DNA of 64,000 nucleotides. Source: an uncultured Pseudomonadales bacterium (GTDB lineage: Bacteria; Patescibacteriota; Microgenomatia; UBA1400; PJMF01). Location of the stretch: the NCBI GenBank assembly GCA_964574595.1, contig CAZNOF010000009.1, positions 2,996-66,995 on the forward strand, written 5' to 3'. Both the position numbers and the translations under genes were made by a program. Of the stretch, positions 44,915 to 61,257 are shown one piece after another; position 1 is the stretch's first letter, and each line of letters starts with the position of its first letter. The notes under the pieces are model-generated. The model worked only from the letters and a program-made list of their open reading frames with translations. It was not told the DNA's origin and did no database searches.

Positions 44915-44986
44915 CGTCAGATATTCGGATTGTATTTGGGTAAGTTTTTCGCTATAGTAGAGACTTATTTTATTTTAATCTGCTCT

Positions 44987-47302
44987 ATGATATTTGACCT
45001 ACAATCAAGCTATAAGCCCACAGGTGATCAGCCAAAAGCTATTGAAAAAATCGTCAATGGTATTAAAGACCAACAACAGTTTCAAACACTGTTGGGGGTA
45101 ACTGGTTCTGGTAAAACGTTTACCATGGCGAACGTCATCCAGCAAACCGGATTACCTACACTGGTTATGGCACATAACAAAACACTTGCTGGCCAACTTT
45201 ATCAAGAATTTAGAGACTTTTTCCCAAATAACGCGGTTAGTTACTTTGTTTCTTACTACGACTACTACCAACCAGAAGCTTACATTCCTTCGAGTGACAC
45301 CTACATTGAGAAGGAAGCTACCATCAATGACGAAATCGATAAACTTCGTTTGGCCACCACTACCAACTTGTTAACTCGCCCAGACTGTATTGTGATTGCT
45401 TCTGTGTCTTGTATTTACAACTTAGGGTCACCAGTTGAGTACGGGAAGTATGTTCTAGAAATTATGGAAGGCGAAATTATTCCCCGTGAGAGCATCTTGC
45501 TTCAATTAGCTAACCTCCAATACCAAAGATCTGATAGTGATTTAGTTCGTGGAAGTTATCGTATGAGAGGCGACGTCATCCAGCTTTGGCCAGCATATGA
45601 GGACACCGCATTGAGAATTGAAACGCTAGAAAACAGAATCACTTCAATTGATCGAATCGATCCAATCACTGGATCACCAACTGTTGATAACAAAAAAATT
45701 GAACACTGGGAACCACGTCAGGGTCAACAAGGTTTATCAGCAAAACGATTCATTATCTATCCTGCGAAACATTACATGACAAATCCGATGACTCAAGCAG
45801 ATTCAATAGCCATGATTCAAAAGGACTTGCAAATCCGCTTAGCAGAGCTTCGAGCGGCCGGAAAAATCGTAGAAGCGTACCGACTCGAACAAAAAGTAAA
45901 TTACGATATTGATATGGTGCGCGAATTGGGATTCGTGAACGGAATTGAGAACTACTCTAGATATTTTGACGGGCGGAAACCAGGGGAGCCACCATTCTCA
46001 CTCATTGAGTTTTTCCATGAGAACGCTAAGTTGTTTGGCAAGAATGACTTTTTAACGATTGTCGATGAAAGCCACATTAGTATCCCCCAAGTCAGAGCAA
46101 TGTATAACGGCGACCAAGCTAGAAAAAGTACTTTAATTGATTATGGATTTAGATTGCCATCCGCCTTAGATAACCGTCCACTCAAGTTTATTGAGTTCAT
46201 GTCTAAAATGAAAAAGATGGTATTTGTGTCTGCCACACCAAACGATTGGGAAGTGTCCATGTCAAACAATGAAGTGGTGGAACAGCTGATCCGACCAACT
46301 GGATTGCTTGATCCAAAAATTGAGCTCAGGCCTACCAAAGGACAAATTGAAGATTTAATTGTGGAGATCATTGACCGAAAAAGACTCGGCCAAAGAACCA
46401 TCGTTACCACACTCACCAAAAAAATGGCTGAAAAATTGACAGAGTATTTAAATGATCCGGTCAAAGTTGCTAAGTTGATTGCTTCGAAACGAGAAAAAAT
46501 TGAAGAGGATAAGAATAGTGAAAATCCGGACAAGGTGATCTATCAGGGTGATGAACTACCAATTGATGAGATGGAAATTGACAGAATTGATCCCAAATTT
46601 TTCACCGAAGCAGTTGCTCCAAATCTCAATATCACTGAACTCGACTTTCCCAAAGTTGCCTATTTGCACTCAGACATTGTTACTTTGGAACGATCAGACA
46701 TCCTCGATGATTTGAGAAGAGGCGAGTACGATGTGGTCGTGGGAATTAACTTGTTACGAGAAGGACTAGATTTACCAGAAGTTACACTCGTCGCCATTTT
46801 AGATGCAGATAAAGAAGGTTTCTTGCGATCAAGAACCAGCTTGGTTCAAACCATTGGCCGCGCTGCCCGACATGAATCAGGCCAAGTCATTATGTATGCC
46901 GACCGAATGACGCAATCAATGAAATACGCCATCGAGGAAACGCAGCGAAGAAGACGCATCCAGTGGGAGTACAACAAAGAGCATGGCATCACGGCCACCA
47001 CAATTTATAAACCAATTCGTGAACGCATGATCGCTAAGACTGAAGACAGTGAGAATAAAGACACTTCAAATAATCGAGGTGGCTGGGGAGAACAAAAAAC
47101 CAGTCGAAATATGGTCACTTTAAGTAAACATGAGCAAATTGATTTAACCACAATAGATCCAGAAGCATATACACCTGACGATAAGAAGAAATTGGCCGCT
47201 AAATTGCGACGTCGCATGAAACAAGCTGCCAATGAAATGGATTACGAGTTAGCCGCAGAGATTAGAAACATCGTCACCCGATTGGAAACTGAAGAAGCAT
47301 AA
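44987..47302 (+). CDS. uvrB: excinuclease ABC subunit B with a ~60-aa insertion in helicase domain 2
   Basis: PTGDQPKAI, Walker A GVTGSGKT, C-terminal UVR domain ELAAEIRNIV. The tracked TTG at 44930 precedes the conserved N-terminus; ATG at 44987. Confidence 0.9.
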   Translation: MIFDLQSSYKPTGDQPKAIEKIVNGIKDQQQFQTLLGVTGSGKTFTMANVIQQTGLPTLVMAHNKTLAGQLYQEFRDFFPNNAVSYFVSYYDYYQPEAYIPSSDTYIEKEATINDEIDKLRLATTTNLLTRPDCIVIASVSCIYNLGSPVEYGKYVLEIMEGEIIPRESILLQLANLQYQRSDSDLVRGSYRMRGDVIQLWPAYEDTALRIETLENRITSIDRIDPITGSPTVDNKKIEHWEPRQGQQGLSAKRFIIYPAKHYMTNPMTQADSIAMIQKDLQIRLAELRAAGKIVEAYRLEQKVNYDIDMVRELGFVNGIENYSRYFDGRKPGEPPFSLIEFFHENAKLFGKNDFLTIVDESHISIPQVRAMYNGDQARKSTLIDYGFRLPSALDNRPLKFIEFMSKMKKMVFVSATPNDWEVSMSNNEVVEQLIRPTGLLDPKIELRPTKGQIEDLIVEIIDRKRLGQRTIVTTLTKKMAEKLTEYLNDPVKVAKLIASKREKIEEDKNSENPDKVIYQGDELPIDEMEIDRIDPKFFTEAVAPNLNITELDFPKVAYLHSDIVTLERSDILDDLRRGEYDVVVGINLLREGLDLPEVTLVAILDADKEGFLRSRTSLVQTIGRAARHESGQVIMYADRMTQSMKYAIEETQRRRRIQWEYNKEHGITATTIYKPIRERMIAKTEDSENKDTSNNRGGWGEQKTSRNMVTLSKHEQIDLTTIDPEAYTPDDKKKLAAKLRRRMKQAANEMDYELAAEIRNIVTRLETEEA

Positions 47303-47348
47303 CTCTTCTCTTACGGATTTTTTACACGTTGCCTGCTACAGTATCAAT

Positions 47349-48569
47349 ATGCGCAACGCCTTTCTCCTCATTTTCTTTGTATTATTTGTTGGTATCGTAG
47401 GTTCAGCCGTTCTGCCAGTTGTCAGCGATTTTGTTCACAAGCAAGTGATACAACTCTCCACAGCCGTTCCTGTTCCTTCACCAACTCCTGCTAACACATA
47501 CAACATCACAGCAGAAATAGATCCTAAATTGAAAAGCACGAATGGTCTGAATGTCTATGACTTTGCCGACAAAGTCACCAATGCGCGTGACCTCCAATTC
47601 ACTCCTGGCGGAGTACTGCTTGTTTCCGAAACTTCTGAAGGTAGAGTAGTGGCGTTGCCAGATCGTGATAAAAACGGCAAAGCTGATGAAGTCAAAACAG
47701 TCTTGAAAGGCTTAAAAAAACCTCATGGCTTAGCTTTTTATCAAGGAAAACTCTTTGTGGCTGAAGAAAATAAAGTTGTTCGTTACATCTGGAATGAGGC
47801 AGATCTTACAGCTCAAAAAGAGAAAGATTTATTCTCACTACCAAGTCAATTTGTCAGTCGTCACTTTACGAGAGGTCTTGAATTCGACAAAGCCGGTAAC
47901 TTATATGTCTCAGTTGGCTCAACTTGCGACACTTGCTTAGAATCGAATGATCAACTGGCTAGTGTTCTCATTACAAATGCTGACGGCTCCTCACCACAGG
48001 TATATGCCAAGGGTCTTAGAAATGCCGTTTTCTTAAAGTTAAATCAAAAAACTGACCAGATTTGGACAACTGAAATGGGTAGAGATATGCTGGGTGATAA
48101 CATCCCACCAGATGAAATCAACATCTTACAAAAGGAGGGAAACTACGGTTGGCCGTACTGTTATGGAAACCAAGTCAAAGATAATACGTTCAAAGAGGGA
48201 AATCCAATAGATTGTCTGAACACAGTTTCTCCAATCTACCAAATTCCCGCCCACTCAGCACCACTTGGTTTGACATTCATTCAGTCAGCTATGTTTCCAG
48301 ATGACTGGCAAGGTGACCTGCTTGTTGCATATCATGGCTCATGGAACAGAACGACTCCAACCGGTTTTAAAGTAGTCCATCAGAAAGTATCGGGGAATAC
48401 CGTCATAAGTGAAGAAGATTTTTTAACAGGGTTCTTAAATAGTCCAAAACCAAGCGATGCAGTTGGCAGACCAGTTGATCTCGAATTTGACCAAAATGGC
48501 CATCTATTTGTCTCTGACGATAAGGCCGGCAAAATCTACATGATTTCTGCAGGAAATCGAGCACAATAG
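47349..48569 (+). CDS. PQQ-dependent soluble sugar (glucose/sorbosone) dehydrogenase-like beta-propeller
   Basis: PHGLAF, GNYGWPYCYG and HSAPLGLTF motifs, with an N-terminal anchor. Confidence 0.55.
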   Translation: MRNAFLLIFFVLFVGIVGSAVLPVVSDFVHKQVIQLSTAVPVPSPTPANTYNITAEIDPKLKSTNGLNVYDFADKVTNARDLQFTPGGVLLVSETSEGRVVALPDRDKNGKADEVKTVLKGLKKPHGLAFYQGKLFVAEENKVVRYIWNEADLTAQKEKDLFSLPSQFVSRHFTRGLEFDKAGNLYVSVGSTCDTCLESNDQLASVLITNADGSSPQVYAKGLRNAVFLKLNQKTDQIWTTEMGRDMLGDNIPPDEINILQKEGNYGWPYCYGNQVKDNTFKEGNPIDCLNTVSPIYQIPAHSAPLGLTFIQSAMFPDDWQGDLLVAYHGSWNRTTPTGFKVVHQKVSGNTVISEEDFLTGFLNSPKPSDAVGRPVDLEFDQNGHLFVSDDKAGKIYMISAGNRAQ

Positions 48570-48647
48570 ATCTAGTTTGTCACTGATTGTTTTATATATC
48601 CCACTCTAGACCTTTCGCCATATCTTCGCTATACTGATACACTATTT

Positions 48648-51647
48648 ATGGCAAAAGAAGTAATCAAAATTACTGGCGCTCGCCAGCATAATTTAAAGAA
48701 CATTTCAATGGAAATTCCTAAGAACCAGTTAGTGGTTTTAACAGGAATGTCCGGCAGTGGAAAAAGTTCATTGGCTTTTGATACCTTATACGCGGAAGGT
48801 CAACGCAGGTATGTAGAAAGTCTGAGTTCTTACGCCCGTCAGTTCTTGGGAGTCATGTCAAAGCCCGAGGTAGACCAAATTGAAGGGTTATCGCCTGCCA
48901 TTTCTATTGACCAAAAAACCACCTCACACAACCCACGTTCCACGGTTGGAACAATTACTGAAATTTACGACTACATGCGTTTACTTTTTGCCAGAGTTGG
49001 TCACCCTCACTGCCCAAATTGTGGCAGAGAGATTTCTACCCAAACGGTCGATCAAATTGTGAATCACATCATGGATGAACTTGATTTGCGTGCGGCTTCT
49101 GGCTTAGCACGCATGTACCTTCTGGCCCCCGTCGTTAGAGAACGAAAAGGGGAGTTCTCTGCACTTTTCGAATCGCTTCAGAAAAAAGGCTACCAACGTG
49201 TCCGTATAGATGGAGTTGTCTACGAGATGAGCCAAGATTTCTCGCTCATCAAAACCAATAAACATACCATTGAAGTAGTGGTTGATCGGTTATCCATCAT
49301 TAAGAAAGAGCTAGGCGATGAAGTCACCAGAAAAAACTTTAGAAGTAGATTATCCCAATCAACAGAAGAAGCCCTAAAGCTGGCTGATGGCATGGTCACA
49401 GCAGCATTTATTGATGATGCCTCACTCGAATTTCCAACCAGTCCTAAATCATTTACTAATAAATTATTTAGTGAAAAGTTCGCCTGTAGTTTCTGTGGCA
49501 TTTCACTTCCTGAAATTGAACCAAGATTATTTTCTTTCAACTCTCCAGAAGGTGCTTGTGAAACATGTAGTGGACTAGGGTCTCTTCTCAAAATTGATCA
49601 GCCTAAAATTCTGGCTCCTTCGTTAACTTTAAGTGAAGGCGCCGTCATTCCTTTTTCTCGAATGTTAAGCAATGACACATGGTGGTCTAGACTTGTCAAA
49701 ACAGTCGTTGAAGAGGCAGGCTATGATTTCCGAAAAACCGCATTTCAAGACATGAAGCCAGAGGTTCAACAGATGTTGCTCTTTGGTTCTGAAAAAGTCT
49801 ATCAGGTTGAGGGTGAAAATCGATTTGGCCGCCAAACCATGATTGAAGAAAAGTTCGAAGGGTTCATCAATAATCTTGAGCGCCGTTATCATGAAACCGA
49901 TTCTGAATTTATTCGCAAAGAAATTGAAGAGTTTATGGAGCGAACTATCTGTCCAAAATGTCATGGCACACGCTTAAAACCAGAACCACTTTCTATCACT
50001 ATTGACGAAAGAAACATTGCCGAAATCACAGGCATGCCGATTGATAAAGCAGTTTCCTGGATCAAAAAAATCAATGAGAAACCCACTTCAGAAGATGAAA
50101 GTATCAACAAAACTGTTTTGTCAGTTAAGGAATTTACTATTGGCGAATCGATTCTCAAAGAAATTTCCGTTCGCTTAAAATTCTTGTCCGCAGTAGGTTT
50201 GGATTACCTGACTTTACATCGTGAAGCTGCTACTTTAGCCGGTGGTGAAGCTCAGCGAATTCGGTTGGCATCACAAATTGGTACGGGTCTGACTGGCGTG
50301 CTTTATGTCTTAGACGAGCCTACCATCGGATTACACCAACGAGATAATTTACAACTCATTGACACGCTAAAAAATCTGCGTGACAAAGGTAACTCAGTCG
50401 TGGTGGTCGAACACGATCGAGATTTAATGCTGGCTGCTGATTACATTTTTGACTTTGGACCGAAAGCTGGTAAACACGGCGGTCAAATTGTGGCTGAAGG
50501 AACTCCTGCCCAAATTATGAAGGATCCTCACTCAGTTACTGGCAAGTATTTAAGCAGACAAAAACAAGTGACTCGCTATGGAAAAAAGGCAGCTACAGAA
50601 GCCCAGCTACTTGACCCAGAAGCTGGTCCAAGTGCCATCTCATCTCAACCTGCAATTAGAATTACTGGCGCCTCTCACCATAATCTAAAAGATGTGGATG
50701 TCTCATTCCCATTAAATACTTTGACGACAATTACAGGGATTTCTGGTTCAGGTAAATCCACACTTCTTCACGATACTCTTTACTACAACTTAGCCAAACA
50801 ACTTGAAAAATCAATTGATCAACGACCAGGAGAAATTACCAGCATTAGTGTGCCTGAAGAAGTCAAAAGAATCAGTTTAATTGATCAAAGTCCAATTGGG
50901 AAAACACCTCGCTCGAATCCGGGTACCTACACTAAAATTTTTGACTATGTTAGAACGGTTTTCGCCAACACCAAAGAAGCCCGTGTTCGCGGATATACTT
51001 CAGGCAGATTCAGTTTCAATGTGAAGGGTGGTCGCTGTGAAGCCTGTCAGGGTGATGGTCAATTAAAAATTGAAATGCAGTTCTTGCCGGATATTTATGT
51101 AGAATGTGACGTTTGCCACGGAGCAAGATATAACGAAGAAACATTAGCCGTGAAGTACAAAGAGAAAAGTATTGCCGACGTTCTGGCCATGACAGTTGAT
51201 GATGCCGCAGAGTTCTTTTCGGGACACAGCACTTTACGCAACAAACTCAAAACATTACAAGAAGTAGGACTTGGATATATTGAGATCGGTCAACCCGCGC
51301 CAACATTAAGTGGAGGAGAGGCGCAGCGCGTCAAACTCGCGAGAGAGCTGTCTATTCGAACCACCGACCACTGCATCTATTTGCTCGATGAACCAACAAC
51401 CGGTTTACACTTTGAGGACATTCAAAAATTACTCCAAGTCTTAGAGCAACTGGTATCTCAAAATAATACTGTTATTCTTATTGAGCATAACTTAGACGTG
51501 ATTAAGAACGCTGACTGGGTGATTGATCTGGGTCCTGAAGGTGGTGAAAAAGGTGGACAAATCATTGCCACTGGCACCCCATATCAGGTTGCTCATAATC
51601 CTGCTTCTTTTACCGGTCGATTTTTAAAAGAAGAAATGGGTCTGTGA
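48648..51647 (+). CDS. uvrA: excinuclease ABC subunit A
   Basis: Two ABC ATPase modules (GMSGSGKSSL, GISGSGKSTL), Zn-finger Cys clusters, 999 aa. Confidence 0.9.
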   Translation: MAKEVIKITGARQHNLKNISMEIPKNQLVVLTGMSGSGKSSLAFDTLYAEGQRRYVESLSSYARQFLGVMSKPEVDQIEGLSPAISIDQKTTSHNPRSTVGTITEIYDYMRLLFARVGHPHCPNCGREISTQTVDQIVNHIMDELDLRAASGLARMYLLAPVVRERKGEFSALFESLQKKGYQRVRIDGVVYEMSQDFSLIKTNKHTIEVVVDRLSIIKKELGDEVTRKNFRSRLSQSTEEALKLADGMVTAAFIDDASLEFPTSPKSFTNKLFSEKFACSFCGISLPEIEPRLFSFNSPEGACETCSGLGSLLKIDQPKILAPSLTLSEGAVIPFSRMLSNDTWWSRLVKTVVEEAGYDFRKTAFQDMKPEVQQMLLFGSEKVYQVEGENRFGRQTMIEEKFEGFINNLERRYHETDSEFIRKEIEEFMERTICPKCHGTRLKPEPLSITIDERNIAEITGMPIDKAVSWIKKINEKPTSEDESINKTVLSVKEFTIGESILKEISVRLKFLSAVGLDYLTLHREAATLAGGEAQRIRLASQIGTGLTGVLYVLDEPTIGLHQRDNLQLIDTLKNLRDKGNSVVVVEHDRDLMLAADYIFDFGPKAGKHGGQIVAEGTPAQIMKDPHSVTGKYLSRQKQVTRYGKKAATEAQLLDPEAGPSAISSQPAIRITGASHHNLKDVDVSFPLNTLTTITGISGSGKSTLLHDTLYYNLAKQLEKSIDQRPGEITSISVPEEVKRISLIDQSPIGKTPRSNPGTYTKIFDYVRTVFANTKEARVRGYTSGRFSFNVKGGRCEACQGDGQLKIEMQFLPDIYVECDVCHGARYNEETLAVKYKEKSIADVLAMTVDDAAEFFSGHSTLRNKLKTLQEVGLGYIEIGQPAPTLSGGEAQRVKLARELSIRTTDHCIYLLDEPTTGLHFEDIQKLLQVLEQLVSQNNTVILIEHNLDVIKNADWVIDLGPEGGEKGGQIIATGTPYQVAHNPASFTGRFLKEEMGL

Positions 51648-51667
51648 ACTTCTTAAAGAAATAGTAA

Positions 51668-53533
51668 ATGAAAAAAATAGCCTACTTTTGTCTAGTATTT
51701 TTTCTTGCATTAGGAGCCTTTTTCACTCTTTCTTCCGTTGCCTTTGCAGACAGTGATTTTTCAGTTTCCCTTCAATCAACCTACACCGTTGTAACAAACG
51801 GAAATACATTTGTTGAGCAGAAATTTGAACTCACTAACAACACTCCTACTTATTATGCCAAAGACTATGCTGTAGAAATTGGCTCGAGTAAACTCAATAA
51901 TGTCCGAGTTTCCGATAGCCAAGGAGAAATTCCCGCGAACATTGTGACTGGCGAGAACAAGACTTCTGTAGGGATCAGTTTTCGTGATCAATTAGTAGGA
52001 GAGGGGAAAAGTCGAACTTTTGTGATTACCTTTGAGAATCCAGACTCCTCACAAATTAGCGGTAACGTTTTGGAAGTGGACATTCCGAAATTACTGAAGG
52101 CGAAAGAGTACAGCAAATATAAAGTCATCGTCAAAACACCAACTCAATTTGGCAAACCTGTTCGAGTAACTCCCGGGAACTATATTTTGTCAGAAGACTC
52201 TAAAAACATTACCTTAGAGTTCAATGATTTAGGCGAACAAAGTGTGTCGGCACTTTTTGGAAACAAGCAGGTCTTTGATTTTACCGTCATCAATAATGTA
52301 GAAAACCCAACCAGCAATTTAGGGGTAGTTCAACTCGCTCTGCCACCAGATACAGCGAGACAAAAAGTCAACTACATTTCACTAGATCCGCCACCAAAAG
52401 AAATGGCCAGAGATCTAGATGGAAACTGGATAGCTACATATGAAGTTGCCGCGCAAAAGAATCTGAACGTAGCTTTGACTGGTAAAGTAATGATTACGCT
52501 AGATGGAAACCAAGAACTTTACTTAGCACCACCAAGTAACCATTTAACTCAATCGCAGCAGTATTGGGAAAGTACAAATTCGCAAATTACTCAGCTTGCC
52601 AAACAATATCCAAATCCGAAAAGTATTTATGACTATGTGGTAAACCATTTGACATATAACTATCAAAGGGGAGAAAACACAACAAATGAGCGGTTGGGCG
52701 CAGTACGTGCCCTAACAACCCCGTTGAATGCCGTCTGCCAAGAGTTTACCGATCTATTTATTGCCTTAGCCCGTGCGAATCATATTCCGGCACGTAGAGC
52801 GGTAGGGTATGCCTACACTGCCAACAGCCGATTGAGACCTCTCGGATTTGTGCAGGACACCTTACACACTTGGCCAGAGTACTATGATAAATCAAAAAAC
52901 GAATGGATTCCTATTGACCCCACTTGGGGCAATACGACTGGTGGAATAAATTACTTTGATCAATTTGACTTTAATCATGTGGTTTTCTCAATCAATGGAG
53001 AGTCGAGCACGCTACCTTACGCCGCGGGGTCGTACCGAAAGGAAAGACAGATCACAAATAATATTGAGGTGAAGTTTGGCAACGAAATGCCTTTACCAAC
53101 TCCCAGCTACCACTTAGAGCTCATTCGAAAACCGATATGGAAATCTTTCTTAAACTCACAGTACACCCTGCAAATTACCAATCAGACAGGAGTCGCTTGG
53201 TATAATATCCCCATCCAAGTCATTTCGGACAATCCGCAAGTTCAACTCGATAGTTCAGAAGCACATTTAGATTATTTATTACCATATCAAACAAGAGAAA
53301 TTTCAATCACGGCTGTGACAGCACAAAAATGGAAGTCTTATCCATTTCGCTTGACAGTCTTAGTTGATAGCCTATCATCAACCTATGATCTCAACACCAG
53401 CCTCAGCCTCCAAGGCGCGCTCGCTCCAAACGTCATTGCAATTGGCGTGGTCGGGGGTGTGGTCATCGTTGCCGCACTCACCTGGAGTGTACTGGTTTCT
53501 AGACGATCACGACACCGTTCTGTACGTCGGTAA
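51668..53533 (+). CDS. secreted transglutaminase-like protein with an intact Cys-His-Asp triad and a C-terminal TM anchor
   Basis: Signal peptide. AVCQEFTDLFIALARANHIPAR (Cys), HTWPEYY (His), IPIDPTWG (Asp). C-terminal IAIGVVGGVVIVAALTWSVLV followed by RRSRHRSVRR. Confidence 0.55.
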   Translation: MKKIAYFCLVFFLALGAFFTLSSVAFADSDFSVSLQSTYTVVTNGNTFVEQKFELTNNTPTYYAKDYAVEIGSSKLNNVRVSDSQGEIPANIVTGENKTSVGISFRDQLVGEGKSRTFVITFENPDSSQISGNVLEVDIPKLLKAKEYSKYKVIVKTPTQFGKPVRVTPGNYILSEDSKNITLEFNDLGEQSVSALFGNKQVFDFTVINNVENPTSNLGVVQLALPPDTARQKVNYISLDPPPKEMARDLDGNWIATYEVAAQKNLNVALTGKVMITLDGNQELYLAPPSNHLTQSQQYWESTNSQITQLAKQYPNPKSIYDYVVNHLTYNYQRGENTTNERLGAVRALTTPLNAVCQEFTDLFIALARANHIPARRAVGYAYTANSRLRPLGFVQDTLHTWPEYYDKSKNEWIPIDPTWGNTTGGINYFDQFDFNHVVFSINGESSTLPYAAGSYRKERQITNNIEVKFGNEMPLPTPSYHLELIRKPIWKSFLNSQYTLQITNQTGVAWYNIPIQVISDNPQVQLDSSEAHLDYLLPYQTREISITAVTAQKWKSYPFRLTVLVDSLSSTYDLNTSLSLQGALAPNVIAIGVVGGVVIVAALTWSVLVSRRSRHRSVRR

Positions 53534-54845
53534 AGCCAAGGATTTAAAAAATAGAATTCAATCGTATAAACTCTGGCAAGGAACTACCGGCAAAACTCGT
53601 CGTTTGGTTTTTCATGCTAAATTCTTGAAGCATCAGGTGTTGGATAGTGAGCTAGAAGCTCTGCTTGTAGAAGCTGAACTTATTCGCACGCATCAGCCAC
53701 AGTACAACATTTTATTAAAAGACGATAAAACACCACTTTATGTCCAAATCACAGACGATTTGTATCCAAGGGTCATCACAATTCGTAAAAAAGAAGTGGA
53801 AAAGTTTAAAATTCATGGTAAAGTCTTCGGCCCTTTTCCAAGTGGCTTTAAAGTAAAGGAAGTACTTCACATTGCTCGAAGAATTTTCCCATACTGTAAT
53901 GCACCTAGAAATGCGCTGTATGGAAAACCAGAAAATAAACCGTGTTTTGATTATCATTTAGATCTATGTAATGGAGCCTGCATTGGTGAAGTCACACCCG
54001 AAGAATATGCCGCTACGATTGATCAGCTGAAACTTTTCTTGCGAGGAAAGAAAAAAGAAGTGATTAGGACAATTGAGGCTGAAATGAAAGAAGCCTCAGA
54101 CAATGAAAAATATGAGTATGCGGCAGATTTACGAGACAGAATTTCGTTAATTAAAGAAGTGACTGAAAAACGATATCAGCTTCGCCCTGAACTCACTTTA
54201 CCCAACTTAAAGGAATCTTTACGCGCTGAAGGCCTAATTTATTTACGACGACTACTTTCAACTCACTTCAATTTACCAAAGACGTATCCACTTACTAGAA
54301 TTGAAGGTTATGACGTGAGTAACATTCAAGGCACAAATGCCACTGTTGCCATGCCGGTTTTTATTAATGGCCAAGCCGCCAAAGATCAATATCGATTGTT
54401 TAATATTAAAACATTAGACACACCAAATGACTTTGCCATGATGCAAGAAGCACTGACTCGTCGTCAGAACCATTTAGAATGGGGAGCCCCAAATTTAATT
54501 TTAATTGACGGTGGTAAAGGGCAACTCAGAGCTGCCTTAAAAGTTTGGCAATGGCACTGTCCGGTGATTTCTATTGCGAAAAAACCAGATCGAATTATTA
54601 TTCCCTACTATGACGATACGAAACAAGAATCTGCCAGCAGAAAAAAATCAGAAAAAAAGAAGTCAGAACCAACTGTTGTCCCATTAGAAGAACCAAACAA
54701 AAACCTGAGATTCCTGAAATATCACGAACTCAGACTTCCGGAGCAACATCCTGCCTTGGTTTTACTTCAACAAGTCAGAGATGAATCTCATCGATTCTCC
54801 AAGTTTCAACATACTCGAATGCGCGACCGAAGTATGTTAGAGTAA
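53385..54845 (+). CDS. uvrC: excinuclease ABC subunit C, short form without an obvious C-terminal (HhH)2
   Basis: GIY-YIG PGVYWFLDDHDTVLYVGKAKDLKNRIQSY, UVR-like and UvrC-homology regions. 5' boundary uncertain: TTG at 53364, ATG at 53385, or GTG/TTG at 53436-53469. Overlaps the preceding CDS by at least 65 nt. Confidence 0.75.
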   Translation: MISTPASASKARSLQTSLQLAWSGVWSSLPHSPGVYWFLDDHDTVLYVGKAKDLKNRIQSYKLWQGTTGKTRRLVFHAKFLKHQVLDSELEALLVEAELIRTHQPQYNILLKDDKTPLYVQITDDLYPRVITIRKKEVEKFKIHGKVFGPFPSGFKVKEVLHIARRIFPYCNAPRNALYGKPENKPCFDYHLDLCNGACIGEVTPEEYAATIDQLKLFLRGKKKEVIRTIEAEMKEASDNEKYEYAADLRDRISLIKEVTEKRYQLRPELTLPNLKESLRAEGLIYLRRLLSTHFNLPKTYPLTRIEGYDVSNIQGTNATVAMPVFINGQAAKDQYRLFNIKTLDTPNDFAMMQEALTRRQNHLEWGAPNLILIDGGKGQLRAALKVWQWHCPVISIAKKPDRIIIPYYDDTKQESASRKKSEKKKSEPTVVPLEEPNKNLRFLKYHELRLPEQHPALVLLQQVRDESHRFSKFQHTRMRDRSMLE

Positions 54846-55250: not shown

Positions 55251-56213
55251 ATGTCTAAAAAACTCAGTGCTATCCTTTTCTTGTTGGGCATTTTTTGTGC
55301 CTTGACCAGCTTCTCCAGTCCAGCCTTTGCGGCCTCACCGGTCCCAGCTGTAAAGAAGGTGAGTCCAACTCCCAGCCCTTCAGACATCCCGGTTGTTGCC
55401 ACCACTTCGGCAATCGCCACGGAGAGTGCAGTTGCTACTCCAGCAGCTCAAGTTGAACAAGTCATACAACAGAAAAATGACAAAGACATTACGGAAACCA
55501 CGAGTAAGCAGAAAGATAAGCTAGTTGAAATTTTGGATCAGAATCCGATCCAACCTGCTTCCTGGTACAACTTCTTACAACATGGCGTCCGCCGAGCAAT
55601 TTCCAATGGGGTACCAGCAAACATTATTGTCTTAATTCTGTTGTTTCCAGTGATCACATCCGTCATTTCATTCTCACGCCACGTAGTCGGGTTGAAAGGC
55701 TTTGGTGTTTACACTCCAGCAGTTTTAGCTGTGGCTTTTGTATCTACCGGAATTGTGAATGGAATCCTGTTGTTTGTAATCGTACTACTTGCCGCTATGT
55801 TCATGAGAAAGCTACTCAGCAGATTAAACTTACAGTATTTGCCCAGAACGGCCATGTTACTCTGGGGCGTTTCCATCGTCACACTGGTTGTTTTAATGGC
55901 TGCTTCCTTCTCACAATTTAGCAACTTATTTATTATTAATATTTTCCCATTATTAATCATCATGTTGTTAACTGAGAACTTTATGGAATCACAACTGGCG
56001 AGTAGTCAGTCAGAAGCTCTTCAGTTAACGCTAGAGACGTTGCTGACAGCAGTTGTTTGTTCTCTCATTATTAGTTCTGATCTCGTCCAAAAATACGTCA
56101 TTCTTCAACCAGAACTGACATTACTTATCGTGGCAGTGGTGAACATCATCGTTGGCCGATACTCTGGATTGAGACTCTTGGAATGGATCAGATTTCGCTC
56201 AGTAATTGAATAA
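55251..56213 (+). CDS. signal peptide + Ala/Ser/Thr/Pro-rich linker + 6-7 TM domain protein (7TM_transglut-like)
   Basis: SP MSKKLSAILFLLGIFCALTSFSSPAFA, a low-complexity linker, then about 7 TM helices. TATAAT ends 7 nt before the ATG. Confidence 0.4.
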   Translation: MSKKLSAILFLLGIFCALTSFSSPAFAASPVPAVKKVSPTPSPSDIPVVATTSAIATESAVATPAAQVEQVIQQKNDKDITETTSKQKDKLVEILDQNPIQPASWYNFLQHGVRRAISNGVPANIIVLILLFPVITSVISFSRHVVGLKGFGVYTPAVLAVAFVSTGIVNGILLFVIVLLAAMFMRKLLSRLNLQYLPRTAMLLWGVSIVTLVVLMAASFSQFSNLFIINIFPLLIIMLLTENFMESQLASSQSEALQLTLETLLTAVVCSLIISSDLVQKYVILQPELTLLIVAVVNIIVGRYSGLRLLEWIRFRSVIE

Positions 56214-56220
56214 TCATTCT

Positions 56221-57504
56221 ATGCCAAAAGCACGCGATTTATTGGGCATGAACGCCCGCAACCAGCTTTATACTTCACTCAATTCCAGTAATGCAAAGCG
56301 TTTTGGAACCTCAAAGTACGCTACGAAAATTTTGCTAGAAGGCAAGAATATTCCTACTGCCAAAGTCTTTGGGATTTTGGGAACGAATGAAGACGTCAAA
56401 GACTTTCCGTGGGAAACCATGGAGAAAAATTTTGTGGTGAAACCCTCAAATGGAAACGGTGGAAAAGGAATTGCCATTTTTAGAACCCAACAACCTGACA
56501 AGCAGCATTGGCTAGATGCCATTGGCCAATCCTGGAGTCTTGATGACATTAAACTGCACTGTGCAGACATTTTGGAGGGTGAGTACAGTACCTATGGTGC
56601 TAACCCAACCATCATTGTGGAAGAGCGCGTTCCTATTCATTCGAAATTTTTAAAGTATGTTTATAAAGGTACTCCAGATATCCGAGTGATTGTTTTTAAT
56701 CACGTCCCAGTCATGTCCATGCTGCGCTTACCTACCAAAGAATCAGAAGGTAAAGCCAACTTACACCAGGGAGCAATTGCTGTTGGAATTGATATGTTTT
56801 CAGGTGTCACAACCTTTGCCATTACGGGTGACGGCACACCCATTTCAGTATTGCCCGATTCAAAGAGAAAATTAAATGGCATCAAAATTCCATCTTGGAA
56901 ACAGGCATTAGAAATCGCTGTTCAAGCTGCTGATGCCGCCGGCTTAGTTTTCTGTGGTGTCGACCTGTTTATTCATGAAGAAAAAGGTCCCATGGTGGTG
57001 GAACTCAATGCTAATCCGGGACTTTCTATTCAACTGGCAAATCACGCCGGGCTGAGAAGACGACTTGAAAGAGTAGCTGACATTACGGTGTTGAATCCAG
57101 AGCACGGTGTGCGTATTGGGCAAGCACTTTTTGCAGAAAACTATTCCGATAAAATTAAAGCTGAAGAAGGCTTAGTAATTATCTCTCCTTTTGAAACAGT
57201 GACATTAACGGGAGACAACAAAGTAAAAGAAGAAGTTCCCGCACTGATTAATACTGGTCGATTTAGAAGTGCCATTTCCAGTGATTTAGCAAAGAAATTA
57301 GGCCTAATCGATCTCGATGATTTACTCTGGTACCAACAAGAAAAAGAAGAAGGGAAAGTACCCGTTATTGAAGTGAATTTCAAACTCAAAGATAGAAGAT
57401 CAACCGGCGCGATGGTAGTTTCTAAATCACTTAACAAGTCAAAATACCAATTAGAAATTGGACGCAATGATCTCAAAGGATTCTTAGTAGGAGAAGGAGA
57501 ATGA
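56221..57504 (+). CDS. RimK-like (alpha-L-glutamate-ligase-related) ATP-grasp ligase fused to a C-terminal retropepsin-like (Zn_protease, PF05618-like) domain
   Basis: N-terminal LLGMNARNQLY. ATP-grasp motifs VVKPSNGNGGKGI, DIRVIVF, ANLHQGAIAV, GVDLFIHEEKGPMVVELNANPGLS. C-terminal VPVIEVNFKLKDRRSTGAMVVSK...YQLEIGRNDLKGFLV. The tracked TTG at 56206 is replaced by the ATG at 56221. Confidence 0.55.
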   Translation: MPKARDLLGMNARNQLYTSLNSSNAKRFGTSKYATKILLEGKNIPTAKVFGILGTNEDVKDFPWETMEKNFVVKPSNGNGGKGIAIFRTQQPDKQHWLDAIGQSWSLDDIKLHCADILEGEYSTYGANPTIIVEERVPIHSKFLKYVYKGTPDIRVIVFNHVPVMSMLRLPTKESEGKANLHQGAIAVGIDMFSGVTTFAITGDGTPISVLPDSKRKLNGIKIPSWKQALEIAVQAADAAGLVFCGVDLFIHEEKGPMVVELNANPGLSIQLANHAGLRRRLERVADITVLNPEHGVRIGQALFAENYSDKIKAEEGLVIISPFETVTLTGDNKVKEEVPALINTGRFRSAISSDLAKKLGLIDLDDLLWYQQEKEEGKVPVIEVNFKLKDRRSTGAMVVSKSLNKSKYQLEIGRNDLKGFLVGEGE

Positions 57505-58469
57505 GCGATCTACTCACAGATTTGATCCCAACCAACTTTCAAACTGAAAAAGTGAAATTTTTTCAAGATTTTTCGTACAATCCACAACTCACTTACGTTC
57601 GCACATTTACCAAAGCAGAGCTTACTCGTTGGGGAAAACCAAACGCAGAGCTAACTAAACATGCCGAGAAAATGCTCAAGGCATACGTGCCAATCACCGA
57701 ACAAGAAACGTATGTTGATGAAGAATACATTTTACAAAAGATTGAATTATTTAACCAAATGTACCATGTCAAAGAACCAATCATTGCCAGTTTTTCCAAA
57801 CAACAGGTAACCAAATGCAGGGTTAATGGTAACCATATTTACTTTCAGCTACCAATTCGTTACACGGCCAGTAAACTAGCCGACTTACTTCGTCACGAAC
57901 TTGAAACGCACGTGTTACGTTTTCTCAACAATCAACAACAAGATTGGGGAGCCAAGAAAATTGATGGAATTAGCTTTAGAAAAACAGAAGAAGGACTAGC
58001 TGGATTACACACCCACTTATTAAGAAAAGATAAAGTCATTCGCAAAAGTTACTTAACTTACTTGGCTGTTTCTACCGCGCAAAAAGCTTCATTCTCAGAA
58101 GTATTTCGTGTGATGCGAGAACAAAAAGTTTCACCGGAAACATCCTGGAATATTGCTTTGCGAACAAAACGTGGAGTTGAGGATACATCACAACCAGGTG
58201 GACTGACCAAAGATATTAGTTATCTTGAAGGTAGTGTGCTCGTTTGGCAGTGGCTTATGAAATCAGGCAATCACGCTAAAGATTTATATATCGGCAGAAT
58301 TGGACTGGCTGACCTTCCAGATTTCCTTCCCATGGCAAAAAAAGAGAATCTCGTTTATCCTCACTTCTTAGATGACTATGAGCAGTATATTTCACACATG
58401 GATGAGATTGGAAAAGTAAATCACTTTGACCAACTCACATTTACATATGACGGAACAAACACACCTTAA
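57501..58469 (+). CDS. QEGLA-motif (DUF1704-like) protein
   Basis: KTEEGLAGLHTHLL (a QEGLA-like motif) and HELETH. ATGA overlap with the upstream gene; SD GGAGAAGGAGA. Confidence 0.45.
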   Translation: MSDLLTDLIPTNFQTEKVKFFQDFSYNPQLTYVRTFTKAELTRWGKPNAELTKHAEKMLKAYVPITEQETYVDEEYILQKIELFNQMYHVKEPIIASFSKQQVTKCRVNGNHIYFQLPIRYTASKLADLLRHELETHVLRFLNNQQQDWGAKKIDGISFRKTEEGLAGLHTHLLRKDKVIRKSYLTYLAVSTAQKASFSEVFRVMREQKVSPETSWNIALRTKRGVEDTSQPGGLTKDISYLEGSVLVWQWLMKSGNHAKDLYIGRIGLADLPDFLPMAKKENLVYPHFLDDYEQYISHMDEIGKVNHFDQLTFTYDGTNTP

Positions 58470-59427
58470 CGCCAGCTCTCGAATCATGTTTGAAGAAGCT
58501 CAAAAAATGGGTATCTCTTGTCAGACATTTGGCGATCACGAAACAGTTTTAATGAAATTGGACAACCTACAATGGTTCGTGCGTGGTTCAAGAACGTCAG
58601 CTCAATCTTCCGTTGGAAAAACCATCGCTGATTACAAGCCGCTTACTAAAAAAATCCTGACCGCCTCAAACCTTCCAACTGCAAAAGGGATAGTTGTTCG
58701 TTCGGTTGACGATCTTGATCAACTAAAAGACTTTCACTTTCCCGTCGTGATGAAGCCGCTAGCAGAGAGACATGGCAAAGGTGTTGTGGTCGGTGTAAAA
58801 GACATTCCGGCCGTGGAAGAAGAGCTTAAAAAAAGTGATCAAGCAATGTTGATAGAAGAGTCACTCAAAGGAACTGAATACCGCATCATCTGTGTAAACT
58901 ACAAATTTGTGGCAGCGGCATTTAGAAAACCTGCACACGTAGTTGGAGATGGCAAAAGGACCATTCAAGAACTCGTGACAGAAAAGAATAAACATCCATG
59001 GAGAGGTGAGGGTCATAGTAACAACCTCAGTCTGATTCAAATTGACGAGATCGTGATGGCAAATTTAGCAGAACAAAGCATGACATTGGACAGCGTTCCA
59101 TCTGCAAAACAAGAAGTGTTACTTCGAAAAACGGCTAATCTTTCTACTGGAGGAGAAGCATGGGATGTTTCAGCTGATGTATCTGACGAAAATAAAAAAC
59201 TATTTGAGGACATCGCCAAAGCATGCGATTTGAATGTGGCTGGAATCGATATGATGTGTCAAAACCTGACAGATCCAATCACTAAACAGTCACAAGCTGG
59301 AGTGATTGAAGTCAATGCGTCTCCAGGCTTAAGGATGCATCATTATCCAATGCAGGGTCAACCTATCAATGTAGCGAAAATCATTTTAGAGTTTGTTATT
59401 TCAAAGGAAAAAGTATGCCAAAGTTAG
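58426..59427 (+). CDS. stand-alone cyanophycin-synthetase-like ATP-grasp ligase (paralog 1)
   Basis: LRKTANLSTGGEAWDVSADVSDEN...NVAGIDMMC...GVIEVNASPGLRMHHYPMQGQPINVAKIILEFV closely mirrors the CphA ATP-grasp core. 5' end ambiguous (TTG 58426, ATG 58447 or 58486). Confidence 0.55.
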   Translation: MTNSHLHMTEQTHLNASSRIMFEEAQKMGISCQTFGDHETVLMKLDNLQWFVRGSRTSAQSSVGKTIADYKPLTKKILTASNLPTAKGIVVRSVDDLDQLKDFHFPVVMKPLAERHGKGVVVGVKDIPAVEEELKKSDQAMLIEESLKGTEYRIICVNYKFVAAAFRKPAHVVGDGKRTIQELVTEKNKHPWRGEGHSNNLSLIQIDEIVMANLAEQSMTLDSVPSAKQEVLLRKTANLSTGGEAWDVSADVSDENKKLFEDIAKACDLNVAGIDMMCQNLTDPITKQSQAGVIEVNASPGLRMHHYPMQGQPINVAKIILEFVISKEKVCQS

Positions 59428-60491
59428 ACGCAAATTATTTTTATGTGAATACAAAGCTAGGTGGAAGTAAGAAACGTGACGAAGTGGTCTCCTTTAGTGT
59501 GCAACTGGTTTTAGCTGAAGCAGAAAAGTTGGGCATGAAGGTGGAACACATTACCGGAACAGAAATGTTTCAGCTTGAGTGGAATGGGAAAACGACCTAT
59601 TTTCACGACAGAATTCCACTCAAAACAAGTGAGTTTGCAGTCACCACATGTATGGATAAACACTTAACAAAAATCTTCTTAGACCGTGCCGGAATTCAGT
59701 CACCAAAAGGATATTTAATTGAACAGTCGGATGATGAAGCGTATCAAAAACAAGTTTTTGATGCCTTGCAAAAACCATTAGTTGTGAAGCCCACTCGTGC
59801 CAGTCACGGAGATGGAATTACTCTAGGTGTTACTGATTTTGAAACCTATAAAATGGCTATTCAAAAGGCAATGACCGCTCGAGATTATGCAGATAGTGCT
59901 GTCGAAATTGAAGAAGAATTTACCGGAAAAGAGTACCGTATCACGGTCTCACAAGAAAAAATCATTGGCGTGATGCATCGTATTCCAGCAAACATTGTTG
60001 GCAATGGTGTTTCCACCATTACCGAACTAGTCAAAGAAAAGAATCAACATCCCTTCAGAAATTTATTTGGCGATAACGTGTACCAAGTCTATGGCAAATT
60101 GATTCTAGATGACGATGCCATCACCATCTTAAAGGAACAAGGCTTCACGCCAGATACAGTACTTCCAAAAGATCAAAAAGCCAACATTAAAAAAGTCTCA
60201 AATATGATGGCTGGTGGCGATGCCATCGATTTAACACCTGATATTCATCCATCAGTGCGAGAAATTTGTTTGAAAACCATTCAGGCTATTCCTGGATTGA
60301 GTATTGCCGGTATCGACTTTATGACCAAGGATTTGTTTGCTGAACAAACACCAGACACCTACCGAATTGTAGAAGTAAATCATAATGCTGAATTTGGCAT
60401 TCATCACTTTCCAATGATTGGTGAGCCACAAAATGCGGCTCGTGAATTTTTAACGATTTTGTTTCCTGAATTAAAAGATCGGAAAGAATAA
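59415..60491 (+). CDS. stand-alone cyanophycin-synthetase-like ATP-grasp ligase (paralog 2)
   Basis: KKVSNMMAGGDAIDLTPDIHP...SIAGIDFMTKDL...YRIVEVNHNAEFGIHHFPMIGEPQNAAREFLTILFPE. Collinear with paralog 1. Confidence 0.55.
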   Translation: MPKLDANYFYVNTKLGGSKKRDEVVSFSVQLVLAEAEKLGMKVEHITGTEMFQLEWNGKTTYFHDRIPLKTSEFAVTTCMDKHLTKIFLDRAGIQSPKGYLIEQSDDEAYQKQVFDALQKPLVVKPTRASHGDGITLGVTDFETYKMAIQKAMTARDYADSAVEIEEEFTGKEYRITVSQEKIIGVMHRIPANIVGNGVSTITELVKEKNQHPFRNLFGDNVYQVYGKLILDDDAITILKEQGFTPDTVLPKDQKANIKKVSNMMAGGDAIDLTPDIHPSVREICLKTIQAIPGLSIAGIDFMTKDLFAEQTPDTYRIVEVNHNAEFGIHHFPMIGEPQNAAREFLTILFPELKDRKE

Positions 60492-60492
60492 T

Positions 60493-61257
60493 ATGACAGA
60501 ACTGAACCTTGCACCATTTGGCATCACCCGGTCTGAAAAAGTGGTCTGGCGCTTTCCTGAACAAGCTAAAGATGTTCTAGAAAACATTAAGAGTAAATCA
60601 CTTAGAAAGTTCTTACGAAACGCAAAGGAAGCACTTGCCACTAAGTCTATACGATATGAATATAAGGTATTAAGTGATCAGGATTTTATTGATTGGTTGC
60701 CATATTACACTGAAAAGATGACAGAGAACGGATATCAAATTATTGCATCTACAGAGTGGTTACAAAAAAAACGTGACGCCGGGTTAACCGTGGAAGGCAT
60801 GTTTTTTTATAAAGATGACAAACTCGTGGGAACCGGTATTTTCACCAAGGATCAATCAGAAAAAGCCACATTTGCGTTTAAAGCGAGTGATCGAATTGAT
60901 TTAAGTAATGAAGCAAATTCATCATTAGGAGCAGTCATTGATTACCTCTTTCTAGATGAAATGGTGCAAAAACAAGTCAAAATTATTTCAGCTGGCAGAT
61001 CAAAAAATGCTTTTGGCGTATTAAACAGTTTTGGTTATTTAGACTATAAACTGCGTTTTGGCTATCAGCCATCTGTTGATCCACTGTCACCATTACTAGA
61101 AACGGTGCCTGTCAATGAACAAGGCGTGATTCTTTTTTATGGACTAAAAGATAATAAGTTAGCACTCTACGAATTCAAGCCCAAAGGTTTTGAAATTCAG
61201 TTTGAACAAGCTCGCTTTGCCACACCAGAGTTGCCATTCGTGGTGATTGAGTATTAA
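60493..61257 (+). CDS. hypothetical protein (254 aa), last gene of the ligase cluster
   Basis: ORF tightly packed 2 nt after the ligase stop. No confident motif; possibly a GNAT-like fold. Confidence 0.35.
   Translation: MTELNLAPFGITRSEKVVWRFPEQAKDVLENIKSKSLRKFLRNAKEALATKSIRYEYKVLSDQDFIDWLPYYTEKMTENGYQIIASTEWLQKKRDAGLTVEGMFFYKDDKLVGTGIFTKDQSEKATFAFKASDRIDLSNEANSSLGAVIDYLFLDEMVQKQVKIISAGRSKNAFGVLNSFGYLDYKLRFGYQPSVDPLSPLLETVPVNEQGVILFYGLKDNKLALYEFKPKGFEIQFEQARFATPELPFVVIEY

Follow-up and report, generated by a model that had tools for sequence, protein, structure and literature searches.

Introduction

RimK polyglutamylates RpsF and makes poly-alpha-glutamate, whereas RimB trims the glutamates; RimB also binds RimK, raises its ATPase activity about fourfold and is needed for poly-glutamate synthesis (PMC11957791). 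In Pseudomonas aeruginosa, the RloABC system comprises a secreted retropepsin-like protease (RloA), a seven-transmembrane (7TM) protein whose transglutaminase domain is inactive (RloB) and an ATP-grasp protein (RloC); RloA cuts stretches of at least eight glutamates, and losing it is toxic only in the presence of RloB and RloC (PMC12239564). Both RloA and RimB bind poly-glutamate in a basic channel (PMC12239564). Here, we describe a related gene in a 64-kb stretch of contig CAZNOF010000009.1 from a member of the Patescibacteria (the whole stretch, 64,000 nucleotides, is hereafter the window). The gene, at 56221..57504, encodes an ATP-grasp ligase that ends in a retropepsin-like domain. We report the fold and the homology of this domain, the loss of its catalytic motif, the purifying selection that maintains it and the fixed neighbourhood of the gene, in which a metallocarboxypeptidase of the MATCAP family follows the ligase.

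The cassette in the window resembles RloABC in that a 7TM_transglut protein, a ligase of the ATPgrasp_ST/TIGR02291 type and a module of the PF05618 family are adjacent; in structure, the C-terminal domain comes closest to RloA and RloA2. Unlike in RloABC, the retropepsin module is fused to a cytoplasmic ligase instead of being secreted and has no catalytic Asp, the 7TM protein is devoid of the transglutaminase-like domain, and MATCAP and additional genes resembling the ATP-grasp part of cyanophycin synthetase (CphA) are present. The hosts also differ: Patescibacteria here, whereas 96% of the RloB matches are in Proteobacteria. With RimB-RimK, the cassette shares the association of a retropepsin-like module with a RimK-family ATP-grasp ligase, and the two can be carried by a single chain. 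Ligase-retropepsin fusions as such are thus already known: in the published RimBK hybrid of Desulfotalea psychrophila (DP2392), the protease domain is N-terminal, keeps DTG and is proteolytically active, and the ligase is RimK proper (PMC11957791). In the window protein, by contrast, the domain is C-terminal, its motif reads N-T-G-R and the ligase appears to belong to the RloC/ATPgrasp_ST branch.

Precomputed Pfam annotation also recognises fusions of ATPgrasp_ST and PF05618 with an intact DTGA motif; proteins of this kind are, for example, P0141, P0148, L066 from Beckwithbacteria, and P0226. Their domains come in the order seen here, and their genes lie in a cassette of the same make-up, with 7TM upstream and ATP-grasp genes downstream; unlike the window protein, they keep K-x-D-T-G-A and the arginines of the RPVV and DRS motifs, and pass the PF05618 threshold. 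A further parallel comes from eukaryotes, where the MATCAP/TMCP carboxypeptidases, which carry HExxxH and EEG metal-binding motifs, remove C-terminal Tyr and Glu and act as deglutamylases (PMC10499314). As in the tubulin tail cycle, where the TTL/TTLL ligases put on C-terminal residues and MATCAP/TMCP take them off, an ATP-grasp ligase is paired with a MATCAP-family metallocarboxypeptidase; unlike there, the components are bacterial and operon-encoded, there is no tubulin, and the ligase is not of the TTL family. Literature searches for bacterial links between MATCAP and ATP-grasp proteins and for pseudo-retropepsins in Patescibacteria found nothing. Four features appear to be undescribed in the searchable literature: a clade of x-T-G-R pseudo-proteases invisible to Pfam, the confinement of this clade to Patescibacteria, the MATCAP gene that constantly goes with it, and two independent swaps of that gene for an active stand-alone RimB-like one.

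An RloC-like ligase fused to a C-terminal domain

The gene and its parts are as follows.

56221..57504, + strand: whole gene, ATP-grasp ligase and C-terminal retropepsin-like domain, 427 amino acids (stop codon TGA at 57502-57504)
56257..57075, + strand: ATP-grasp ligase domain, RloC/RimK-like, residues 13-285 (PF14397, TIGR02291, Foldseek)
57001..57009, + strand: E261-L-N263, the E-x-N motif (gaa ctc aat), with D248 upstream of it
57076..57171, + strand: interdomain linker, residues 286-317 (in the AlphaFold model, a helix at 293-303 and then a low-confidence loop)
57172..57492, + strand: retropepsin-like domain (RimB/RloA family, clan AA), residues 318-424, predicted to be catalytically inactive (Foldseek, hhalign)
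57250..57261, + strand: N344-T345-G346-R347 (aat act ggt cga), in place of the catalytic D-T-G-A, from alignment to the canonical DTGA
57460..57468, + strand: G414-R415-N416 (gga cgc aat), the second retropepsin hallmark G-R-N/D, retained

The list of open reading frames and the sequence itself give an uninterrupted frame at 56206..57504 (+ strand), in which the ATG at 56221 yields 427 amino acids. An alternative in-frame TTG start lies at 56206; we prefer 56221 because the homologues share the same Met (consensus MxKAxDILGMNARxQLY). The protein begins with MPKARDLLGMNARNQLY and ends with ...YQLEIGRNDLKGFLVGEGE, which matches the letters quoted in a first-pass annotation of this DNA.

That annotation regarded ligase and C-terminal domain as fused in one polypeptide, and the fusion is genuine and conserved. 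We scanned one genome per GTDB species, seeding the search on the clade's own conserved motifs, and in all 60 loci that were returned the two domains lie in one open reading frame (427-460 amino acids). The labels of these loci are nearly all Patescibacteria, Pacebacteria, Woesebacteria or Beckwithbacteria. The 120 best database homologues are 62-100% identical to the window protein and nearly all about 427 amino acids long. They extend over 96-100% of the query, and a single one is a partial record that is truncated. A frameshift artefact joining two genes was considered and rejected, since the fused frame is conserved in the 60 loci and the 120 homologues.

The first-pass description of the N-terminal part as RimK-like holds for the fold and is imprecise as to the type. 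Residues 13-285 match PF14397 (ATPgrasp_ST; E 3e-59, 201 bits against a gathering threshold (GA) of 31.4), and the Pfam RimK model gives a sub-match at residues 228-269. Residues 4-287 match TIGR02291, 'alpha-L-glutamate ligase-like' (E 5e-70), with 235.9 bits, which is under the cut-off of 314.2. The TTL family (PF03133) gives a sub-threshold match (E 0.007). The full-length AlphaFold model, built from 91 homologues, has a mean predicted local distance difference test score (pLDDT) of 86.5 and a predicted template modelling score of 0.81, with the ATP-grasp region mostly at pLDDT 85-97; its top Protein Data Bank (PDB) matches in Foldseek are RimK (5zct, 5zk6, 7qys, 7qyr) and ArgX/LysX. The RimK equivalog NF007764 scores 27.9 bits for a cut-off of 331, which speaks against RimK proper; the ligase is of an RloC-like, ATPgrasp_ST type. 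The residues for nucleotide and metal binding (K74, E134, E135, D248, E261 and N263) are invariant across the 91 aligned homologues; we take E261 and N263 of the E-x-N motif, together with D248, to be the Mg2+ ligands. The two domains are joined by a helix and a loop, the latter predicted to be disordered (pLDDT below 50 at residues 309-316), and H295, L303 and F304 of the linker are invariant in the aligned homologues.

The C-terminal domain belongs to the RimB/RloA family

The C-terminal domain had been likened to the 'putative ATP-dependent zinc protease' family (PF05618), with comparison to the Pfam model proposed as a check. The model itself (GA 27 bits) finds no match, even at E <= 10, on either the whole protein or the isolated domain. 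It matches none of the 40 clade members that we scanned and, in precomputed Pfam annotation, none of the 120 homologues. Only hints of clan AA emerge with Pfam and NCBIfam, all sub-threshold: for the isolated domain, gag-asp_proteas (E 0.05), Asp_protease_2 (E 0.1) and TIGR03698 (E 0.03); among the 40 scanned members, gag-asp_proteas in 23 and Asp_protease_2 in 15, every match sub-threshold. Searches of the window-clade domain against PDB sequences (phmmer, profile) gave nothing relevant, the sole match being a spurious homeobox (E 0.42).

The assignment is nonetheless secured at the level of the fold and of profiles. The model of residues 305-427 is compact and confident (pLDDT 85.9), and its best PDB match in Foldseek is RloA of P. 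fluorescens (9g58, E 4.7e-6), with Legionella Lpg0085/DUF785 (2pma, E 7.1e-6) and RloA2 of P. aeruginosa (9g59, E 1.4e-5) close behind. The top matches have template modelling scores of 0.54-0.65, and all 43 matches at E <= 1e-3 are retropepsin-like, those following RloA, Lpg0085 and RloA2 including Ddi1, the HIV, EIAV and HTLV proteases and Rickettsia APRc. A profile search with the domain through 1.84 billion representative proteins recovered 182 relatives, the remoter of which show K-[IV]-D-T-G-A-x-R-[ST]-S. Some of the relatives exceed the GA of PF05618 (P0148 with 42.4 bits, P0141 with 29.9, P0230 with 51.5 and P0226 with 37.3). When the alignment of the window clade was compared by hhalign with 37 stand-alone DTGA relatives, the two matched over 119 columns (99.8%, E 1e-27), which places N344 opposite the Asp of DTGA. 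The profile of the canonical relatives, in turn, matches the PDB chains of RloA2 (1.7e-12) and RloA (3.4e-10), in a range that includes Lpg0085/2pma and extends to 1.5e-8. Because structure, transitive homology and profile-profile comparison agree, the domain is homologous to the PF05618 (RimB/RloA) family and has diverged beyond the reach of Pfam. The resemblance first proposed is thus borne out, although the Pfam model does not detect it.

The catalytic motif was lost and the domain was kept

The check for a catalytic D-T/S-G fails: in every alignment the position of the Asp is occupied by N344, in the context A-L-I-N-T-G-R-F-R-S. Across 161 unique sequences of the clade, this position is N in 136, K in 9, H in 7 and D in 6, with a few S or A, whereas it is D in 37 of 37 canonical relatives. 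T345 and G346 are retained in the clade. The following Ala, present in 37/37 canonical relatives, is Arg (R347) in 159 of the 161. The second hallmark is untouched, as G414 and R415 are invariant or nearly so in both the clade and the canonical relatives; we liken G414-R415-N416 to what we take to be its counterpart in the HIV-1 protease, G86-R87-N88.

Part of the lining of the substrate channel has changed as well. The basic residues that coordinate poly-glutamate in RloA are K46, R114 and R137 (PMC12239564). The equivalents of K46 and of R114 (in 'RPVV') are L342 and V380 in the window protein, and that of R137 (in 'DRS') is S403, a position with K or R in 132 of the 161 clade members. Other basic residues near the former active site (R347, R349, K379, K/R403, R415) are conserved in the clade. 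The catalytic motif and part of the basic poly-glutamate-binding lining were probably lost in an ancestor of the clade (D-T-G-A to x-T-G-R). RloA variants D48N and D48A served as catalytically dead controls (PMC12239564), and RimB D31E is inactive (PMC11957791). Given that the catalytic Asp is gone and that the same D-to-N change kills RloA, the domain is predicted to be inactive and is probably non-cutting.

A neighbour-joining tree separates the x-T-G-R clade from the DTGA-fused ATPgrasp_ST and PF05618 proteins, which form its sister clade. This suggests that the Asp was lost in a single ancestral event, after which its former position drifted. The rest of the domain did not follow. Mean pairwise identity across the 60 species is 54.9% for the C-terminal domain and 62.5% for the ATP-grasp domain, and 19 positions of the former are at least 95% conserved while position 344 varies. 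Some of the invariant or near-invariant residues are specific to the clade (D367, L369, W370, Q372, E377, E412). The domain is still under purifying selection and is not decaying.

A MATCAP-type carboxypeptidase accompanies the fused ligase

The genes around the ligase are the following.

55251..56213, + strand: upstream partner, with a signal peptide, a low-complexity segment of about 90 amino acids and a 7TM part, RloB-like (PF14402, NF052267, hydropathy scan)
57501..58469, + strand: downstream partner, a MATCAP/DUF1704-type metallocarboxypeptidase (PF08014 E 1e-24, TIGR02421 E 1e-29)
58426-59427 and 59415-60491, + strand: two tandem cyanophycin-synthetase-like ATP-grasp genes, variable accessory (TIGR02068 E 2e-95 and 9e-67)
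60493..61257, + strand: 254-amino-acid protein, variable accessory gene (0-2 copies across loci)

The start codon of the MATCAP gene overlaps the stop codon of the ligase (ATGA, 57501-57504). A MATCAP gene lies downstream in 55 of the 57 informative x-T-G-R loci, and the HExxxH (H132, E133, H137) and EEGLA (163-167) motifs of its product are invariant in 56/56 orthologues. In the two exceptions, the MATCAP slot is filled by a stand-alone RimB-like gene of 147-148 amino acids with an intact DTGA (L011:6359-6802 and L017:6336-6776). Both gene products pass PF05618 (44.6 and 37.9 bits), and in the neighbour-joining tree the two genomes are not sisters. No MATCAP gene lies next to the ligase gene in L066 and L004, two relatives whose fused protein has DTGA. 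The window itself, searched over its 64 kb, holds no second RimB-like gene.

The upstream partner matches PF14402 (7TM_transglut, E 3.5e-31), whereas the RloB model NF052267 matches its 7TM part only (positions 315-506), and the protein has no transglutaminase-like domain. Its gene is directly upstream of the ligase in 60/60 loci, and in the window it ends 7 nucleotides before the ligase start. The order of the locus is conserved: Transglut_core, uvrC, a Phage_holin_4_2 membrane protein, 7TM_transglut, ligase with retropepsin-like domain, MATCAP/DUF1704, then 0-3 cyanophycin-synthetase-like ATP-grasp genes, 0-2 copies of the 254-amino-acid protein, and mnmA. The CphA-like genes correspond only to the ATP-grasp portion of cyanophycin synthetase (model positions about 150-475), without the Mur-ligase-like part. 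The gene for the 254-amino-acid protein travels with them, and its product has no significant Pfam, NCBIfam or PDB sequence match.

The Transglut_core protein (51668-53533, + strand) has a signal peptide and a C-terminal transmembrane anchor, and its gene stands upstream of the 7TM gene, beyond uvrC and the holin-like gene, in essentially all 60 loci. Its Cys-His-Asp residues appear intact by eye (VCQEF / HTWPEYY / IDPTW), and the protein may correspond, in a split and possibly active form, to the transglutaminase domain that in RloB is inactive and fused to the 7TM part. More broadly, uvrB, uvrA and uvrC are interleaved with one GSDH-like gene and the transglutaminase-like gene (44930-54845, + strand), an order kept in the relatives L001-L003 at 76% identity.

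The module has several fusion partners in related proteins

A survey of whether homologues are fused or split had been proposed. The domain is fused in 60/60 loci of the clade. In the subfamily that can be reached from it, the 150 best representative clusters include both arrangements.

43 clusters: domain C-terminal to this type of ATP-grasp (28 with DTGA, 9 without the Asp)
15 clusters: domain N-terminal to a 7TM part, behind a signal peptide (14 with DTGA)
81 clusters: short proteins without ATP-grasp sequence, stand-alone or fragments (62 with DTGA)
11 clusters: other proteins of more than 220 amino acids, including MATCAP fusions (7 with DTGA)

The MATCAP fusions include P0226 (counted among the 43 ATP-grasp fusions), P0270 and, probably, P0269. 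The retropepsin module is therefore also found fused to ATP-grasp, to 7TM and to MATCAP in relatives, which links the four parts.

Several of these proteins deserve mention in their own right. P0196, P0229, P0230 and 12 other representatives combine a signal peptide, one or two RimB-like domains with intact DTGA, and a 7TM_transglut domain; by their predicted layout they would be, in effect, RloA-like proteases that an RloB-like membrane domain anchors outside the cell and that stand where RloB has its transglutaminase-like domain. P0226 (L005:3474-5876, 800 amino acids) joins ATPgrasp_ST, a RimB-like domain with DTGA and MATCAP in one chain; the neighbours of its gene are one for a PKD-7TM_transglut protein, three more for ATP-grasp proteins and another for MATCAP. 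P0270 consists of a RimB-like domain with N-T-S-K and MATCAP. In P0219 (539 amino acids), unexpectedly, a lysyl-tRNA synthetase of class I (PF01921, E 2e-84) carries at its C-terminus a RimB-like PF05618 domain that has DTGA.

Many records of metagenome-assembled genomes with this Patescibacteria-type block (among them L008, L016, L019, L022 and L051) bear the title 'uncultured Pseudomonadales', 'Vitreimonas sp.', 'Limisphaerales', 'Methylococcaceae' or 'TM6', in each case probably a placeholder or a wrong taxonomic label.

Discussion

The explanation that we favour, and consider probable as a whole, is that Patescibacteria conserve a cassette akin to the Rlo and Rim systems of Proteobacteria, made of an RloB-like 7TM protein, an RloC/RimK-like ligase and a MATCAP-type metallocarboxypeptidase. 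By analogy with RimK, the ligase would use ATP to extend a C-terminus, or a free or growing peptide, by amino acids that are probably acidic, and homology suggests that it would act in concert with the RloB-like 7TM protein. The domain at its C-terminus, which descends from retropepsin-like proteases of the RimB/RloA type, would no longer cleave peptides and would have been kept for a structural or regulatory part that it plays in the ligase, for example in activation, oligomerisation or the docking of partners, much as RimB activates RimK about fourfold. The added residues would instead be removed by the translationally coupled MATCAP-like carboxypeptidase, which is the most likely agent of trimming. 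This hand-over is supported by the presence of MATCAP in 55/57 loci, by its invariant motifs, by the DTGA gene that fills its slot in the two exceptions, by the lack of an adjacent MATCAP in the DTGA-fused L066 and L004, and by the deglutamylase activity of eukaryotic MATCAP/TMCP.

Several points weigh against this explanation. The inactivity of the domain is a prediction from its motif, some members of the clade keep the Asp (DTGR, DTKR), and some of these Asp-keeping lineages may have residual or alternative activity. A catalytic Asp relocated to D367 or D417 is a further possibility that we considered, the latter residue being ancestral (GRxD) and the former clade-specific. The role suggested for the dead domain comes by analogy, from RimB-RimK only. 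The association with MATCAP is largely inherited from one ancestor, which leaves few independent events. Finally, the two hydrolases do not strictly exclude each other, as an intact DTGA and MATCAP occur together in the triple fusion P0226.

The dead domain could alternatively serve as a clamp that holds the substrate, binding an acidic tail or a growing peptide and passing it to the ligase or to MATCAP, in the manner of the 'substrate trap' formed by the D25N variant of the HIV protease. Retropepsins in which the Asp is changed to Asn still bind their substrates, the architecture of the cleft is retained here (xTG, GRN), and the conserved basic residues around the former active site would suit a role akin to that of the basic channel of RloA and RimB (PMC12239564). 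Yet two of the three conserved positions that coordinate poly-glutamate are replaced (L342, V380) and the third is Ser in the window protein, while several of the invariants specific to the clade are acidic or neutral (D367, E377, E384, E412, Q372), as would not be expected of a simple poly-anion channel. Moreover, the dimeric cleft is itself putative, and the Arg at the position of the Ala in DTGA may disturb the canonical dimer. As the poly-glutamate-binding lining is partly replaced and new acidic invariants appear, we regard a clamp as rather unlikely, and as a weaker alternative than non-catalytic activation, oligomerisation or docking.

It is much harder to sustain the view, put forward in the first-pass annotation, of an obligate ligase-protease pair in which an active aspartic protease trims the tail built by the ligase. 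In its favour, the domain shares true homology with RimB and RloA, which are active proteases, active RimB-RimK hybrids are known (PMC11957791), related fusions have an intact DTGA (P0141, P0148, L066), and both T-G and G-R-N/D are retained. Against this, the catalytic Asp is Asn in the window protein and N, K, H, S or A across the clade, substitutions of this residue in RloA (D48N) and RimB (D31E) abolish activity (PMC12239564; PMC11957791), Arg takes the place of the Ala that follows DTG in 159/161 sequences, the two poly-glutamate-coordinating residues equivalent to K46 and R114 are lost, and a gene for a competent peptidase is always alongside. A bifunctional enzyme of this kind is, from what can be read in the sequence, very unlikely. 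That the domain is a functionless, decaying remnant attached to what is simply an RloC-type ligase is scarcely credible: the catalytic motif is gone, its first position drifts and Pfam is blind to the domain, but the domain is full-length in 60/60 species-level genomes and nearly all of the 120 homologues (the truncations being only partial records), is not far below the ligase in identity (54.9% vs 62.5%), has 19 positions at least 95% conserved, some of them clade-specific, and folds compactly (pLDDT 86).

Returning to the ligase with a non-cutting domain and a MATCAP partner, we tentatively extend it to a broader scenario, itself doubtful as a whole. In this lineage of Patescibacteria, an aspartic protease of the RimB/RloA type would have been neofunctionalised into a pseudo-enzyme welded to its partner ligase, with tail removal given over to MATCAP. 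The outcome would be a bacterial cycle in which the ligase adds residues and MATCAP removes them, a parallel to the tubulin tail code of eukaryotes and possibly its ancestor. Through its coupling to a 7TM protein, the cycle would perhaps act on a product that is exported or belongs to the cell envelope.

Ribosome modification, osmotic tolerance, biofilm formation and antibiotic sensitivity are regulated by the Rim and Rlo systems, whose characterisation is recent. Pfam misses the domain described here in hundreds of Patescibacteria proteins, which are labelled merely 'alpha-L-glutamate ligase-like' or 'sugar-transfer associated ATP-grasp'. The promiscuous fusions tie the 7TM, ligase, retropepsin and MATCAP components into one pathway, and the MATCAP/DUF1704 peptidases are nominated as the functional replacement of the protease, a proposal supported by the two independent back-swaps to an active stand-alone RimB-like gene. 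The clade would thus amount to a natural experiment, in which the non-catalytic role of the retropepsin module (kept, fused and conserved) has been separated from its catalytic role (lost).

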